A DNA stretch of 7,574 nucleotides from Escherichia coli (GTDB lineage: Bacteria; Pseudomonadota; Gammaproteobacteria; Enterobacterales; Enterobacteriaceae), in NCBI RefSeq assembly GCF_003334305.1, contig NZ_QOWS01000046.1. The stretch is one strand, 5' to 3'. Under the pieces are notes generated by a model. That model did no database searches. It was not told the origin of the DNA and saw only the letters and a list, made by a program, of their open reading frames with translations. Shown here piece after piece: positions 171 to 6,823 of the stretch. Within the stretch, counting starts at the first letter, position 1, and each line of letters starts with the position of its first letter. Made by a program: the position numbers and the translations under genes.

Positions 171-994
171 TCACTGAGTCAGCCCAACAAAGCGACCCGC
201 CTTGATATAAATCCCAGGCTTCAGGTGCCCAACATACTGTAACTGCGTTTCTGGCTTAAACGCAGAGACATCACCAATACGCATATGCATCAGATCGGCA
301 GGGCTAATCCAGCCCGATTGCGCCAGTGTAAGTGGATGCCCGGCTTTGGCAAAGGCATCCGTGACAAATTCCGAACAAAACCACGACTTTTTGTCTCCTT
401 CGCCCACACTGCTTAACTGCGCTTTCGCCAGGCCGCTGACGCACTTTGGCGAAAATCCTCGGAGAACGGATTCAGTGAGCACATCTGGCGAGTCACCATA
501 AAGGGAATAAATTCGACAATGCCGCGATAGTTATAACCGCTATCTTTGATTTTATTGGCAAACGCGGTGATATCTGTGGCTTGTTGCGGGGTAAGATCCG
601 GGACTCGTAAGACGAAAAGCTTATCACTATGCTTCATCGCTTTTTTAAGGGAAACAATCTGGACGCCAGCGCCTGTCGCTTCTGCAACGTTATTATCACC
701 CAGAAAGATTGCAACGTGACTCACAGAGGAAGTGCTGAAGACGCGGATTCCAAATGAGGTTACCCCAAGGCTTGAGGAGAACAGCAAATCGCCGGGTTTG
801 AGATCAGGTGCCGTTATTTCTTTTATTGATTGTTCGGTGAAAGAGCTTTGATGCTGGAATTTGACAGCCCATGTTTTTGCCTCGGCATCTACTGCTGTGG
901 CTGATGGGTCTGGCTGGCTGATATCAACGGTACAAGCCGAAAGTAAAAGAAAGCTGGGGAGAAACAGGCGGCAGTACGCCTTTGGTTTATCCAT
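171..994 (-). pseudogene. yaeF: yaeF-like lipoprotein (permuted NlpC/P60-type putative peptidase), interrupted by a frameshift in this sequence
   Basis: Two overlapping minus-strand ORFs in different frames (413..1048 and 171..482). The upstream one starts MDKPKAYCRLFLPSFLLLSAC (signal peptide plus lipobox LSAC) from ATG at 992-994 and stops at TAA 413-415. The downstream one carries the Cys motif WFCSEFV and runs to the stop at 171-173. His-containing and Cys-containing segments fall in separate frames. Span 171..994 is 824 nt, not a multiple of 3. Confidence 0.8.
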
Positions 995-1010
995 TTTATA
1001 CAATCCATGT

Positions 1011-1038
1011 AAAAAAAGGGCCCTGAAATTCAGGACCC
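1011..1038 (-). terminator. Rho-independent terminator of proS
   Basis: Read on the minus strand: GGGUCCUGA-AUU-UCAGGGCCC, a 9-bp stem with one G-U pair and a 3-nt loop, followed directly by U7 (plus-strand a7 at 1011-1017). It begins about 10 nt downstream of the proS stop. Confidence 0.8.
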
Positions 1039-1047
1039 TTTCTGGCA

Positions 1048-2766
1048 TCAGCCTTTAATCTGTTTCACCAGATATTCGACGATGTCACCAGTCTTAATTA
1101 ACTGTTTCTCGCCGTTGCGACGATATTTATATTCGATATCGTCGTTGTCGAGGTTACGGTCGCCCAGCACAATAGTGTGCGGAATACCGATCAGTTCCAT
1201 ATCAGCAAACATCACGCCCGGACGCTCTTTGCGGTCATCCAGCAGCACTTCGATACCTTGTGCACGCAGTTCGCTGTACAGTTTCTCAGCAAGCTCTTGT
1301 ACGCGGAAGGATTTGTGCATGTTCATCGGCAGAATCGCCACCTGGAACGGCGCGATAGCGTCAGGCCATACGATGCCTCGTTCGTCGTAGTTCTGCTCAA
1401 TCGCCGCAGCTACCACACGCGTTACCCCGATACCGTAGCAACCCATCGTCAGGATTTGGTTACGGCCATCTTCACCCTGTACGGAGGCTTTCAGTGCTTC
1501 GGAGTACTTGGTACCCAGCTGGAAGATGTGACCAACTTCGATACCACGTTTGATCAGCAGCGTACCCTGGCCATCCGGGCTTGGATCGCCAGCCACCACG
1601 TTACGGATATCTGCAACTTCCGGGGTAGCGACATCGCGATCCCAGTTGATGCCGAAGTAGTGTTTACCATCGATGTTAGCACCAGCAGCGAAATCACTCA
1701 TCGCCGCAACGGTACGGTCAATCACCACCGGAATCGGCATGTTTACCGGACCCAGTGAACCCGGACCGGCTTTAACCACGGCACGAATTTCTTCTTCGGT
1801 CGCGAAAGTCAGCGGGCTTGCAACCTGCGGCAGTTTTTCTGCTTTAACTTCGTTCAGCTCGTGATCACCGCGCACCAGCAGCGCAACCAGCGGGAAGCTA
1901 CTGCCTTCAACCGCTTTAACCAGCAGAGTCTTAACCGTTTTCTCAATCGGCAGATTGAACTGTTCAACCAGTTCCGCGATGGTTTTCGCGTTCGGCGTAT
2001 CAACCAGCGTCATTTCCTGGGTAGCAGCAGCGCGCGGTTCTTTCGGCGCGATAGCTTCTGCCAGTTCAATGTTCGCTGCATAGTCAGAGGTGTCGGAGAA
2101 GACCACATCGTCTTCACCGCTCTGCGCCAGCACCTGGAATTCGTGAGAGGCGCTGCCGCCGATAGAACCGGTGTCGGCTTGTACGGCGCGGAAATCCAGC
2201 CCCATGCGGCTGAAGATTTTGCTGTAGGCCGCATACATTGCATCGTAGGTTTCCTGCAGGGATTCCTGAGAAGTATGGAAAGAGTAAGCATCTTTCATCA
2301 GGAATTCGCGGGAACGCATGACGCCGAAACGCGGACGCACTTCGTCGCGGAACTTGGTCTGGATCTGATAGAAGTTCAGCGGCAGCTGTTTGTAAGAGCT
2401 AAGCTCGTTACGAATCAGGTCAGTGATAACTTCTTCATGAGTTGGGCCGAGTACGAACGGACGCTCGCCACGGTCAACAAAACGCAGCAGTTCCGGACCG
2501 TACTGTTCCCAACGACCACTCTCTTGCCACAAATCAGCTGGCTGAACCACCGGCATCGACACCTCGATCGCACCGGCGTTGTTCATCTCTTCACGCACGA
2601 TGTTTTCGACTTTTTTCAGAACGCGCACGCCGGTCGGCAGCCAGGTATATAACCCGGAGGCCAGCTTGCGGATCATCCCGGCGCGCAGCATCAGCTGATG
2701 GCTGATCACCTCGGCGTCGGCAGGTGTCTCCTTGAGAGTGGAGAGCAGGTATTGGCTAGTACGCAT
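1048..2766 (-). CDS. proS: Prolyl-tRNA synthetase (class II aaRS with INS editing domain), 572 aa
   Basis: The 590-aa ORF contains the recognisable ProS sequence starting [20 protein letters not shown] at an internal ATG (2764-2766), giving 572 aa. The 18 upstream in-frame codons are treated as non-coding leader. Confidence 0.96.
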
Positions 2767-2877
2767 GTTGTTACGGTTCCAGTTGGAAGGTAGAACAGGC
2801 TCAAGGCGAGCCTGGGACAAAAAAAAGTGATTTAGTTTACCAGTGCAAAAGAAATGTCAAAAGAGAAGGGCGTGAAT

Positions 2878-3585
2878 TTAACGCGGTTCCAGCGCAAAGA
2901 CTTCAAAACCTGCGTCGGTGACGCGCCAGCGAACGTTAAAATCATGTAGCCAGACGGCATAGGTTTTGCCCGTTTCCTCACCTTTACGATAGGCCGGGCG
3001 TGGGTCCTGCGCCAGTACTTCGCGGATAAACAGCGTTAACTGCGGATAACGCTTCTCCAGCGTCAAAAGCTGCTTTTCGACCTCTGCGGTAAAACTCACC
3101 GCCATCTCTGCCGCTGGCGCACTTTGCGCATAGCTGGCACTGGCATCGGGAAGCGATTCGGCAAAGGGGAGATACGGTTTGATATCCACTACCGGCGTAC
3201 CATCGACCAGATCCAGACTGCCGAGCTTCAGAATCACGCTGTCTTTATGGCAAACAACCTCTTTCAGCTCTACCAGCGACATACCAATTGGGTTAGGGCG
3301 GAAAGTAGAGCGTGTTGCGAAAACCCCCATTCTGGCGTTACCGCCGAGGCGCGGTGGACGCACAGTCGGACGCCAGCCGCCTTCCATCGTTTGATGAAAG
3401 ACGAAAAGGATCCATAAATGGCTGAACGCTTCCAGGCCGCGAACGGCGTCGGCCTGGTTGTAGGGAGCAATGAGATGCAGTTCGCCGTTGGCGCTTTTTA
3501 CCAGACCTGGCTGGCGCGGAACGGCGAATTTTTCTTTATAGGGCGAGCGAATAACGCCTATTTGCTCGAACTGGAAACTGCTCAT
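2878..3585 (-). CDS. trmO: tRNA (adenine37-N6)-methyltransferase TrmO (formerly YaeB/TsaA), 235 aa
   Basis: ORF translation MSSFQFEQIGVIRSPYKEKFAVPRQPGLVK... recognised as E. coli YaeB/TrmO with matching length. Its ATG overlaps the rcsF stop (ATGA). Confidence 0.94.
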   Translation of the reverse strand: MSSFQFEQIGVIRSPYKEKFAVPRQPGLVKSANGELHLIAPYNQADAVRGLEAFSHLWILFVFHQTMEGGWRPTVRPPRLGGNARMGVFATRSTFRPNPIGMSLVELKEVVCHKDSVILKLGSLDLVDGTPVVDIKPYLPFAESLPDASASYAQSAPAAEMAVSFTAEVEKQLLTLEKRYPQLTLFIREVLAQDPRPAYRKGEETGKTYAVWLHDFNVRWRVTDAGFEVFALEPR

Positions 3586-3986: not shown

Positions 3987-4048
3987 AGTATTTCCTCAAT
4001 GTATGATCAAAACGTCAATATTGAATCAGGAGCTTGTAAAAATGACAA

Positions 4049-4066
4049 GACGGGCAAGCGCCCGTC
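4049..4066 (-). terminator. Probable intrinsic terminator downstream of metQ (end of the metNIQ operon)
   Basis: Minus-strand hairpin GACGGGC-GCUU-GCCCGUC (7-bp GC-rich stem) followed by UUGUCAUUUUUA, about 38 nt after the metQ stop. The U-tract is interrupted, hence moderate confidence. Confidence 0.5.
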
Positions 4067-4103
4067 CTGAATGATATTACAAATTGTGGAAACAGCCTAA
4101 AAA

Positions 4104-4919
4104 TTACCAGCCTTTAACAGCGCCGCCGTTAAACACTTTGTTTGCTGCTTCGTAAACTTCATCAGACTGATAAGCCTGGACGAATTTCTTCACGTTCTCG
4201 GCGTCTTTGTTATCTTCACGCGTTACGATCAGGTTTACGTACGGGGAGTCTTTATCTTCGACAAAGATACCGTCTTTCGCTGGAGTCAGGCCAATCTGGC
4301 TGGCATAGGTGGTATTGATAACTGCCAGAGCGATTTGCGCGTCGTCCAGAGATCGAGGCAGCTGCGGTGCTTCCAGCTCAACAATTTTCAGATTTTTTGG
4401 GTTCTCAACAACATCAAGAACGGTCGGCAGCAGGCCAACGCCATCTTTCAGTTTGATCAAGCCCACTTTTTGCAGCAGCAGCAGTGAACGACCAAGATTA
4501 GTTGGATCGTTTGGCACGGCAACCTGCGAACCATCCTGCAGTTCATCCAGTGATTTGATTTTCTTGGAGTAACCAGCAATCGGATAAACAAAAGTGTTGC
4601 CTACTGCGACCAGTTTGTAGCCACGATCTTTCAGTTGCTGATCAAGGTACGGTTTATGCTGGAAGGCGTTGGCGTCGATATCGCCTTTGCTCAATGCTTC
4701 GTTTGGCAGAACATAGTCGTTGAAGGTTACCAGCTCAACGTCCAGGCCATATTTGTCTTTCGCAACTTTCTGCGCGACTTCTGCTACCTGCTGTTCGGCA
4801 CCAACAATCACGCCGACTTTAATGTGGTTTGGATCTTTTTCATCCTGACCGCAGCCTACCAGTGCCAGTGATCCAATCAGGGCTCCCACTGCCGCAAAGG
4901 TTTTGAATTTGAACGCCAT
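4104..4919 (-). CDS. metQ: D-methionine ABC transporter substrate-binding lipoprotein MetQ (NlpA family), 271 aa
   Basis: ORF MAFKFKTFAAVGALIGSLALVGCGQDEK... with signal peptide and lipobox cysteine. Strong RBS AAGGAA upstream. Recognised as MetQ with matching length. Confidence 0.96.
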   Translation of the reverse strand: MAFKFKTFAAVGALIGSLALVGCGQDEKDPNHIKVGVIVGAEQQVAEVAQKVAKDKYGLDVELVTFNDYVLPNEALSKGDIDANAFQHKPYLDQQLKDRGYKLVAVGNTFVYPIAGYSKKIKSLDELQDGSQVAVPNDPTNLGRSLLLLQKVGLIKLKDGVGLLPTVLDVVENPKNLKIVELEAPQLPRSLDDAQIALAVINTTYASQIGLTPAKDGIFVEDKDSPYVNLIVTREDNKDAENVKKFVQAYQSDEVYEAANKVFNGGAVKGW

Positions 4920-4958
4920 ACCTTATTCCTTCTTCAATTATTTATGTTGTGTTGAACG

Positions 4959-5612
4959 TTACTTGCGAGTGACAGCCCGGACGATGCGGTCGCCTGCGAA
5001 CTGAATTAAATAAACCAGAATGACCAGCAATACCAGTACCGTATTCATCACCGTCGCGTTATAGCCGATGTAGCCATACTGATAGCCAATCTGACCTAAA
5101 CCACCGGCACCGACTGCACCACCCATCGCGGAATAACCGACCAGGGTAATCAGGGTGATAGTTGCCGCATTCACCAGACCCGGCAATGCTTCCGGTAACA
5201 GCACTTTACGGACGATCTGCATCGGCGTGGCACCCATTGCACGGGAAGCTTCAATTAACCCGGTTGGGATCTCCAGCAGAGCGTTCTCGACCATACGGGC
5301 AATAAACGGTGCTGCACCAACGGTTAACGGAACAATCGCTGCCTGCAAACCAATCGATGTACCGACAATAACGCGGGTAAACGGAATCATCCATACCAGC
5401 AAGATAATGAACGGGATGGAACGGAAAATGTTCACAATCGCAGAAACGGTACGATACAGCTTCGCGTTAGCAATAATTTGCCCCGGGCGCGTAACATAAA
5501 GCAGGACGCCGACCGGCAGACCAATCACAAAGCCAAAAAATCCGGATACGAAGGTCATTGCCAGCGTTTCCCATACGCCACGAACCAGCAACCACATCAT
5601 CGGCTCAGACAT
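4959..5612 (-). CDS. metI: D-methionine ABC transporter permease MetI, 217 aa
   Basis: Hydrophobic multi-[33 protein letters not shown]... Start ATG overlaps the metN stop by 8 nt. Recognised as MetI with matching length. Confidence 0.95.
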
Positions 5613-6636
5613 AACCCAGTACCTCTACTTTTACATGGTGTTCCTGCAGCCAGGCAATGGCGGCTTGCGTATCTTGTTGTGTGCCGTGCATTTCAGTCAG
5701 CATGATGCCGAACTTAACGCCACCGGCGTAATCCATCTGCGCGCTAATAATGTTGTTGTTGACGTTGAAACGACGCGCGGTTTCAGAAAGCAGCGGGGCA
5801 TCGACCGATTGACCGGTAAACTCCAGGCGCAACATCGGCACGCAGTCAGTAAATGGCTCCGCTTGCAGACGTTCCTGGTAATCTTCCGGGATATCCAGAT
5901 GCAGGGTCGACTGAATAAACTTCTGCGCCAGCGGCGTTTTCGGATGCGAGAACACTTCACTTACCGTGTCCTGCTCGATCAGTTCGCCATTGCTGATGAC
6001 CGCCACGCAATCACAAATACGCTTCACAACGTCCATTTCGTGGGTGATCAACAGAATCGTCAAACCCAGACGGCGGTTAATGTCTTTCAGCAGTTCGAGA
6101 ATAGAACGTGTCGTTGCCGGGTCCAGCGCGCTGGTGGCTTCATCACACAGCAATACTTTGGGATTGCTGGCTAATGCACGGGCAATCGCCACACGTTGTT
6201 TCTGCCCACCGGAAAGATTCGACGGGTAGCTATCATGCTTATCGCCAAGACCAACCAATGACAGCAATTCCGTCACGCGACGTTTGATCTCGTCTTTCGG
6301 TGTGTTGTCCAGCTCCAGCGGCAGAGCCACGTTGCCAAAAACAGTACGCGAAGAGAGCAGGTTAAAATGCTGGAAAATCATACCAATCTGGCGGCGAGCT
6401 TTGGTCAACTCGGATTCTGACAGCGTGGTCAGTTCCTGGCCATCGACCAGCACGCTACCCTCGGTTGGGCGCTCCAGCAGGTTTACACAACGTATAAGCG
6501 TACTCTTACCCGCGCCTGAGGCACCGATAACGCCATAAATTTGTCCAGCTGGCACATGCAGGCTGACGTTGTTCAACGCCTGGATGGTGCGGGTGCCCTG
6601 GTGGAACACTTTGGTGATATTCGAAAGTTTTATCAT
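5605..6636 (-). CDS. metN: D-methionine ABC transporter ATP-binding protein MetN, 343 aa
   Basis: Walker [13 protein letters not shown] signature LSGGQKQR, Walker [12 protein letters not shown], and a C-terminal regulatory extension. Recognised as MetN with matching length. Confidence 0.96.
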
Positions 6637-6710
6637 TGATTATTTATTATCGTCATTAAGTTAGTCGTGGCATTTCGAATGCCTGAAACGGGCAACGCCG
6701 TCAATGAAAT

Positions 6711-6742
6711 GGATGTTAAGGCATCCAGACGTCTAAATCAAT
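6711..6742. promoter_or_regulatory. MetJ operator (met box) region in the metN promoter
   Basis: Perfect met-box octamer AGACGTCT at 6727-6734, flanked in 8-bp register by degenerate copies (aggcatcc, 5/8; ggatgtta, 4/8). It lies about 90 nt upstream of the metN start codon. Confidence 0.55.
6713..6741 (-). promoter_or_regulatory. Candidate sigma70 promoter of metNIQ
   Basis: On the minus strand: -35 TTGATT (6736-6741), 17-bp spacer, -10 TAACAT (6713-6718). The perfect met box lies inside the spacer, consistent with repression by occlusion. Confidence 0.4.
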
Positions 6743-6823
6743 CAGGTTTATGCGAAGAGCACTTTCTTGCAGGTCGAAACATGCGATACTAGCGTCACAT
6801 GCCTTATTAAGGAGCTATAAAAG

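Follow-up and report, generated by a model that had tools for sequence, protein, structure and literature searches.

A predicted metI ribosome-binding site conserved within the 3′ end of metN in the Escherichia coli metNIQ operon

The metNIQ locus

The stretch of DNA analyzed here, referred to throughout as the window, comprises 7,574 nt of Escherichia coli chromosome that align as a whole with K-12 MG1655 at 99.1% identity; positions 4000..6800 are 100% identical in several RefSeq strains, and this region was found in 5425 of 5426 complete E. coli genomes. The minus strand carries yaeF (frameshifted), proS, trmO, rcsF, metQ, metI, and metN, and the plus strand carries gmhB. At the center of this work are metN (5605..6636, minus strand), a 343-aa open reading frame for the ATP-binding subunit of a methionine ABC importer; metI (4959..5612, minus strand), a 217-aa frame for the permease subunit that opens at the first start codon after an in-frame stop; and metQ (4104..4919, minus strand), a 271-aa frame for the lipoprotein substrate-binding subunit. 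These genes lie in the order N-I-Q on one strand and, as expected of a metNIQ importer, all three products match curated models over their full length and score well above the cutoffs, namely MetN against NCBIfam TIGR02314 (701.8 bits, cutoff 499.7, aligned over residues 1-343 of 343), MetI against NF008049 (452.5 bits, cutoff 212, aligned over 1-217 of 217), and MetQ against NF008285 (570.1 bits, cutoff 374), so that the gene names given in the first-pass annotation of this DNA were right. Within MetN, Pfam models identify an ABC_tran domain and a C-terminal NIL (NIL/C2) domain at residues 268-339, while MetI residues 1-217 are identical to the crystallized 217-residue chain A of PDB entry 3DHW.

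The three genes are the native E. coli metNIQ (MetD) methionine importer operon. The K-12 locus (metD; abc-yaeE-yaeC) has the identical gene order, protein lengths of 343, 217, and 271 aa, 8-nt metN/metI overlap, and 39-nt metI-metQ spacer, and differs by strain-level substitutions only, of which the closest to the junction is a synonymous TTG/CTG difference at position 5591, in metI codon 8. Comparison with annotated metNIQ operons, which had been suggested as a check, returned the geometry of the window both in K-12 MG1655 (metN 221614..222645, metI 220968..221621, and metQ 220113..220928; b0199, b0198, and b0197) and in a PGAP-annotated strain with 100% identity to the window over 4000..6800. 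According to the accessible literature, the identical K-12 proteins transport L- and D-methionine.

The limits of the operon can be proposed from two features that together would delimit it. Between metQ and rcsF, a consensus scan picked out a hairpin resembling an intrinsic terminator (4046..4069, minus strand; 10 pairs, 7 of them G-C, followed by a T run), which is likely the operon end. Upstream of metN, a perfect candidate MetJ box, AGACGTCT, occupies 6727..6734 and is the sole zero-mismatch match in the window; by eye, it is followed by the degenerate 8-mers GGATGCCT and TAACATCC. In the met regulon, such a box would serve as a MetJ operator.

Several features of the window stand apart from the junction considered below. 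The metN leader (6637..6661, minus strand) is A/T-rich and lacks a recognizable Shine-Dalgarno (SD) sequence (duplex energy +0.3 kcal/mol, published aSD value 0.419); metN gave an in vitro initiation peak of 0-8 CPM, yet has an average translation efficiency of 1.04 in vivo. Relative to K-12, yaeF carries a 1-bp deletion at about position 445 that splits it into open reading frames at 171..482 and 413..1048 (minus strand), and it is a RefSeq pseudogene in a strain 100% identical to the window over 4000..6800. The rcsF and trmO genes overlap by 4 nt (ATGA; 3582..3585, minus strand), the commonest overlap class, and the mechanical proS frame (1048..2820, minus strand) encodes 590 aa from a TTG start, as opposed to an annotated protein of 572 aa from an internal ATG.

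The metN/metI junction

The overlap of metN and metI spans 8 nt (5605..5612, minus strand) and consists of the metI ATG (5612..5610) and the metN TGA (5607..5605), reading ATGTCTGA as the reverse complement. Direct reading, the open reading frame list, and annotation all bear out the overlap that the first-pass annotation had pointed to, and its coordinates for the metI start and the metN stop were right, with the addition that they lie on the minus strand. On that strand metN ends GTA GAG GTA CTG GGT TAT GTC TGA (V-E-V-L-G-Y-V-stop), and metI begins, one base out of phase with metN, ATG TCT GAG CCG ATG ATG (M-S-E-P-M-M). The overlap is already present in the reference annotation and is an ordinary case of common bacterial gene packing; as the class is well described, we give it little weight as a discovery. 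A frameshift fusion of MetN to MetI was considered and dropped, as no slippery heptamer is present at ...GGU UAU GUC UGA and no evidence supported it.

What had been overlooked is that metI has a conserved SD of its own. The motif GAGGT (5621..5625, minus strand) lies 8 nt before the metI ATG and coincides with metN codons E338-V339, the final two residues covered by the Pfam NIL model (268-339). Its duplex with the 3′ end of 16S rRNA is predicted at −7.1 kcal/mol (published aSD value −7.881), at least as strong as that of metQ, and both the SD and the AUG are predicted to be mostly unpaired (0.78 and 0.79, respectively). Folding of a 121-nt segment revealed no unusual RNA structure at the junction (z = +1.2), and with the SD and AUG predicted mostly unpaired, coupling by "unmasking" of the metI start is not supported.

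Conservation among Enterobacterales

A single scan of representative genomes yielded 80 Enterobacterales loci from 80 species, ranging from Escherichia to Serratia, Pectobacterium, and Lonsdalea, in which MetI is 88-100% identical to the query. The ATG start, the TGA stop, and the exact octamer ATGTCTGA are kept in all 80 loci, and GAGGT stands 8 nt 5′ of the metI ATG in every junction listed for this set, although these species are related, so that the 80 loci do not amount to 80 independent observations. In E. coli itself, the 44 nt around the junction are at least 99% identical in 5358 of 5416 matching genomes.

Conservation of the protein can be separated from that of the DNA by looking at synonymous sites. 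Across 75 distinct, ungapped metN sequences, 237 codons are both conserved in protein and degenerate, and of these only three are synonymously invariant: E338 (GAG), Y342 (TAT), and V343 (GTC), each in 75 of 75 sequences. The other 11 conserved Glu codons of metN each occur as both GAA and GAG, and TAT and TAC likewise both occur at each of the other three conserved Tyr codons. The frozen codons correspond to the SD core, to the AT of the start codon, and to the G of the start codon together with metI codon 2. This pattern provides strong evidence, from sequence comparison, that the SD and start codon at the metI junction are under purifying selection.

Distant homologs of the junction

For a deeper comparison, we examined 16 distant MetI homologs (38-54% identity) from plasmids and chromids, many of them MetNI-like chromid paralogs that adjoin sulfur-acquisition genes. 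The ATPase and permease genes overlap in 15 of the 16 loci, with start codons in unannotated loci assigned by us from open reading frames and alignment. In 11 of the 16, the permease ATG falls within the Tyr/His codon that ends ...LG(Y/H), and the two genes share 8 nt in Burkholderia (ATGTTTGA), 11 nt in Cereibacter, Paracoccus, and Phyllobacterium, 20 nt in Rhizobium, Shinella, Variovorax, Komagataeibacter, Acinetobacter, and Ralstonia, and 35 nt in Azospirillum. The remaining loci have overlaps of 13 nt (a Pantoea plasmid paralog), 4 nt (Novosphingobium and Tsukamurella), and 1 nt (Enterococcus), or, in Deinococcus, a 5-nt gap and no overlap.

The ATPases of the alpha-, beta-, and gammaproteobacterial loci end in ...E-V-L-G-Y/H followed by 1-10 residues, and it is the length of this tail alone that varies; the E. 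coli MetN tail is the shortest, with one codon after the Tyr and then the stop. At the DNA level, the proteobacterial junctions read GAGGT-N8-ATG, in which the ATG is formed by the Tyr or His codon (TAT or CAT) and the next G. Most of the other Proteobacteria compared (Burkholderia, Cereibacter, Paracoccus, Rhizobium, Variovorax, Acinetobacter, Ralstonia, and Azospirillum) share this arrangement with E. coli, while a few distant junctions keep only the ...LG(Y/H) part, with the permease N-terminus aligning at residue 1. Beyond the length of the ATPase tail, the distant loci differ from that of E. coli in gene order, which is often metQ-metN-metI. Judged by these alignments, the metI initiation region is an old dual-coding element, as the same GAGGT-N8-ATG encoded by E-V-L-G-Y/H recurs across alpha-, beta-, and gammaproteobacteria.

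Initiation at metQ and its GcvB target site

The metI-metQ intergenic spacer (4920..4958, minus strand) is, by direct reading, 39 nt long and holds the metQ SD, AAGGAA (4926..4931, minus strand), 6 nt before the ATG; both the spacer and this string had been described correctly. Among 79 Enterobacterales loci, the spacer ranges from 29 to 136 nt, while AAGGA is found at most 22 nt from the metQ start in 77 of the loci and AGGA in all 79. The conserved SD within a spacer of variable length, a translation efficiency five times that of metI, and a spacing of more than 20 nt form the basis on which metQ is considered to be translated independently of metI and at a higher rate, a conclusion that is supported by the data.

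The first-pass annotation had read a strong ribosome-binding site as consistent with a higher rate of independent initiation at metQ. The higher rate itself holds up, with a translation efficiency of 1.57 versus 0.31 for metI, an in vitro initiation peak about four times as high, and 5-15 times as much protein. The link to a strong SD does not, as the metQ SD (duplex energy −6.1 kcal/mol, published aSD value −7.481) is no stronger than that of metI, and SD strength therefore does not explain the difference. MetQ is reported at about 20,000 copies per cell, and the binding proteins of type I importers are found at 10-200-fold above their transporters.

The spacer also contains a known target site of the small RNA GcvB, which the earlier reading had missed. 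A C/A-rich sequence, CAACACAACAT (4944..4954, minus strand), is a perfect 11-nt complement of the GcvB R1 seed; it is the sole 11-mer R1 complement on either strand of the window and lies inside the metQ translation initiation region. The R1/spacer duplex is predicted at −20.9 kcal/mol, and the C/A motif is kept in 54 of 79 metI-metQ spacers. Energy calculations were uninformative as predictors, since full-length GcvB gave a long, meaningless duplex no better than those with shuffled sequences (69 of 500) and R1 alone gave several coding windows that beat the spacer; we relied, therefore, on the exact 11-nt complement and on the literature, which lists metQ (yaeC) as an R1 target that has been verified in Salmonella, is conserved in E. 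coli, and was recovered there by RIL-seq.

Other GcvB-repressed binding-protein mRNAs (dppA, oppA, livJ, argT, and gltI, among others) have the same C/A-rich R1 site just upstream of the SD of the binding protein. In those mRNAs, however, the site lies in the 5′ leader, whereas that of metQ sits between two cistrons inside a polycistronic mRNA, where targeting would be confined to the last cistron. GcvB would thus act on metQ separately from metN and metI through the C/A-rich spacer site, and the standing of metQ/yaeC as a published GcvB target implies that repression could fall on the last cistron apart from the other two.

Long spacers of 84-136 nt occur in loci L013, L025, L054, L061, and L072 (Raoultella, Tenebrionibacter, Yersinia, and others) and hold GC-rich inverted repeats, for example ggccgcgcgcaccgcgcgcggc. 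These repeats could be inserted hairpin or REP-like elements.

Translation of metI relative to metN

The first-pass annotation had taken the overlap as support for coupled translation of the ATPase and the permease. We regard coupling as plausible by analogy with other gene pairs, and it is a reasonable expectation given that MetN and MetI form one complex. The metI ATG begins 5 nt before the metN stop on the same strand, which makes the genes a −8 pair. This spacing (ATGNNTGA, NTGNNTGA) is the third most enriched, after −4 and −1, and −8 pairs are enriched among subunits of heteromeric complexes; the metN-metI junction resembles the ATGNNTGA class in having the same ATG 5 nt before the TGA, an SD in the upstream gene, and products that are partners in a heteromeric complex. 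In work covering 2.66 million gene pairs, a spacing between −8 and +6 was described as indicative of termination-reinitiation, and genes more than 20 nt apart are predicted to be translated independently; the metN-metI distance also falls within the reported permissive range of −8 to about +10 nt. Of the overlapping E. coli pairs tested experimentally, four of five were coupled, and removal of the SD substantially cut reinitiation in the same number, while bioBF was uncoupled. The coupling experiments in the literature, however, cover −4 and −1 pairs and engineered distances, and the ribosome densities of metN and metI are unequal. Our literature search turned up no published test of the dependence of metI on metN translation.

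Ribosome profiling densities had been named as a further check on coupling, and they point away from equal output. In the table of Burkhardt et al., ribosome densities are 1024.6 for metN, 269.8 for metI, and 2131.7 for metQ, with mRNA levels of 985, 880, and 1356 and translation efficiencies of 1.04, 0.307, and 1.572, respectively. The density of metI is thus 0.26 of that of metN, a 3.8-fold difference at similar mRNA, which means that the output of the two genes is not 1:1 and fits partial coupling at best. As inner-membrane proteins in the same table also show low efficiency, part of the gap may be a class effect reflecting generally low efficiency, or under-recovery, of such proteins. Label-free proteomics gives MetN:MetI ratios of 1.6-2.7 and a MetQ:MetN ratio of about 5. 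Despite the overlap, neither the published ribosome densities nor the proteomic ratios support equal output of MetN and MetI.

We think it rather probable that, in the native metNIQ operon, the metI ribosome-binding site lies inside metN and is served both by SD-assisted reinitiation and by de novo loading, with metQ initiating independently. In this model, the ribosome-binding site of metI is written within the last six codons of metN, with Glu338-Val339 supplying the SD GAGGU and Leu-Gly the 8-nt spacer, and with the AUG formed by Tyr342 (UAU) and the G that opens Val343. One codon later comes the metN stop, which gives the 8-nt overlap. Ribosomes ending metN stop 5 nt 3′ of the metI AUG, from where the SD can still be reached, and some of them probably reinitiate at metI by SD-assisted termination-reinitiation, a contribution that, like its size, we infer. 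Free 30S subunits would also be able to load on the same exposed SD and AUG. The net effect is that metI is translated about one-quarter as often as metN, with no strict 1:1 relationship, and that metQ, 39 nt further on, initiates independently at its own SD and at a higher rate. Ribo-RET in vivo, for its part, showed no peak for metN, metI, or metQ.

A rival account, which we consider less likely, is that metI initiates essentially de novo at its own SD and that the overlap is a by-product of compact packing, the start being anchored in the conserved C-terminal strand of MetN without meaningful coupling. In INRI-seq, a synthetic RNA starting about 30 nt 5′ of the metI ATG gave a retapamulin peak in vitro in five of five replicates (84-152 CPM for metI, compared with 300-411 for metQ and 0-8 for metN), and since this fragment contains only about 30 nt of metN, metI can initiate without translation of metN. 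The predicted accessibility of the SD and AUG, the lack of a masking structure, the 3.8-fold difference in ribosome density, and the uncoupled bioBF pair, one of the five tested, are likewise in keeping with purely de novo initiation. Initiation on naked RNA in vitro is, however, uninformative about a site that in vivo is continuously crossed by elongating ribosomes. The four other tested E. coli pairs were coupled, the −8 spacing is specifically enriched both genome-wide and among complex subunits, and the overlap is kept in 15 of 16 distant homologs even though the length of the ATPase tail varies.

Whichever route brings ribosomes to metI, we consider the evidence strong, on the basis of the sequence, that metI starts at the ATG at 5612 with GAGGT as its SD. 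This judgment of the annotated start draws on the invariance of TAT and GTC, the 8-nt spacing of the SD, the in vitro retapamulin peak in all five replicates, and the alignment of the NCBIfam model with MetI beginning at residue 1. The possibility that metI instead begins at the in-frame ATG of codon 5 (5600..5598) or codon 6 (5597..5595), leaving no overlap and a gap of a few bases, is highly improbable, and we reject it. Both ATGs are present, and that of codon 5 is conserved in the 80 loci; MetI residues 2-4, being dual-coded with the metN stop, cannot be judged independently; and no native MetI N-terminal peptide was found in the datasets searched, the TRAINSPOTTER N-terminomics data having no entry for MetN, MetI, or MetQ. 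Yet GAGGT lies at least 20 nt from those ATGs compared with 8 nt from the first, and the invariance of TAT at Y342 would be unexplained if the first ATG were unused. A codon-5 start also predicts an INRI-seq peak 24-30 nt away, whereas the peak was observed 12-18 nt from the annotated start, and metI does not appear in the portions covered of the other tables of the INRI-seq paper. In addition, Variovorax, Komagataeibacter, Acinetobacter, and Burkholderia lack Met5, yet their first ATG occupies the same position.

One might argue that the overlap is a chance or annotation artifact without selective meaning, since short overlaps can form when a stop codon is simply lost or shifted and the ATPase tail beyond the Tyr codon differs in length between lineages. 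This reading is refuted in practice by conservation of the identical 8 nt in 80 of 80 species with MetI identity down to 88%, by the lack of any synonymous change at precisely the SD and start codons, and by the agreement of independent annotation pipelines.

Implications for MetN and the importer family

The significance of the junction lies less in the overlap itself than in the observation that metI carries a selected SD of its own inside metN. A practical consequence is that codon changes or deletions at the 3′ end of metN or the 5′ end of metI hit both genes. Keio-style deletions reportedly retain the start codon and remove codon 2 onward. A metI deletion that begins at codon 2 removes the last residue of MetN, V343, along with the metN stop codon, and adds a read-through tail. 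MetN, alone among ABC ATPases, is reported to have "completely failed to express" in a strain deleted for metI (PMC12094219), and, if that strain carries a codon-2 deletion of metI, loss of the MetN stop could lead to this failure.

Beyond E. coli, it is tempting to speculate, though we hold this only tentatively, that the E-V-L-G-Y of the MetN NIL/C2 domain is held unchanged throughout the Proteobacteria in part because the same codons serve as the metI ribosome-binding site, GAGGU-N8-AUG. If this is true, a translation signal would constrain the sequence of a regulatory protein domain.
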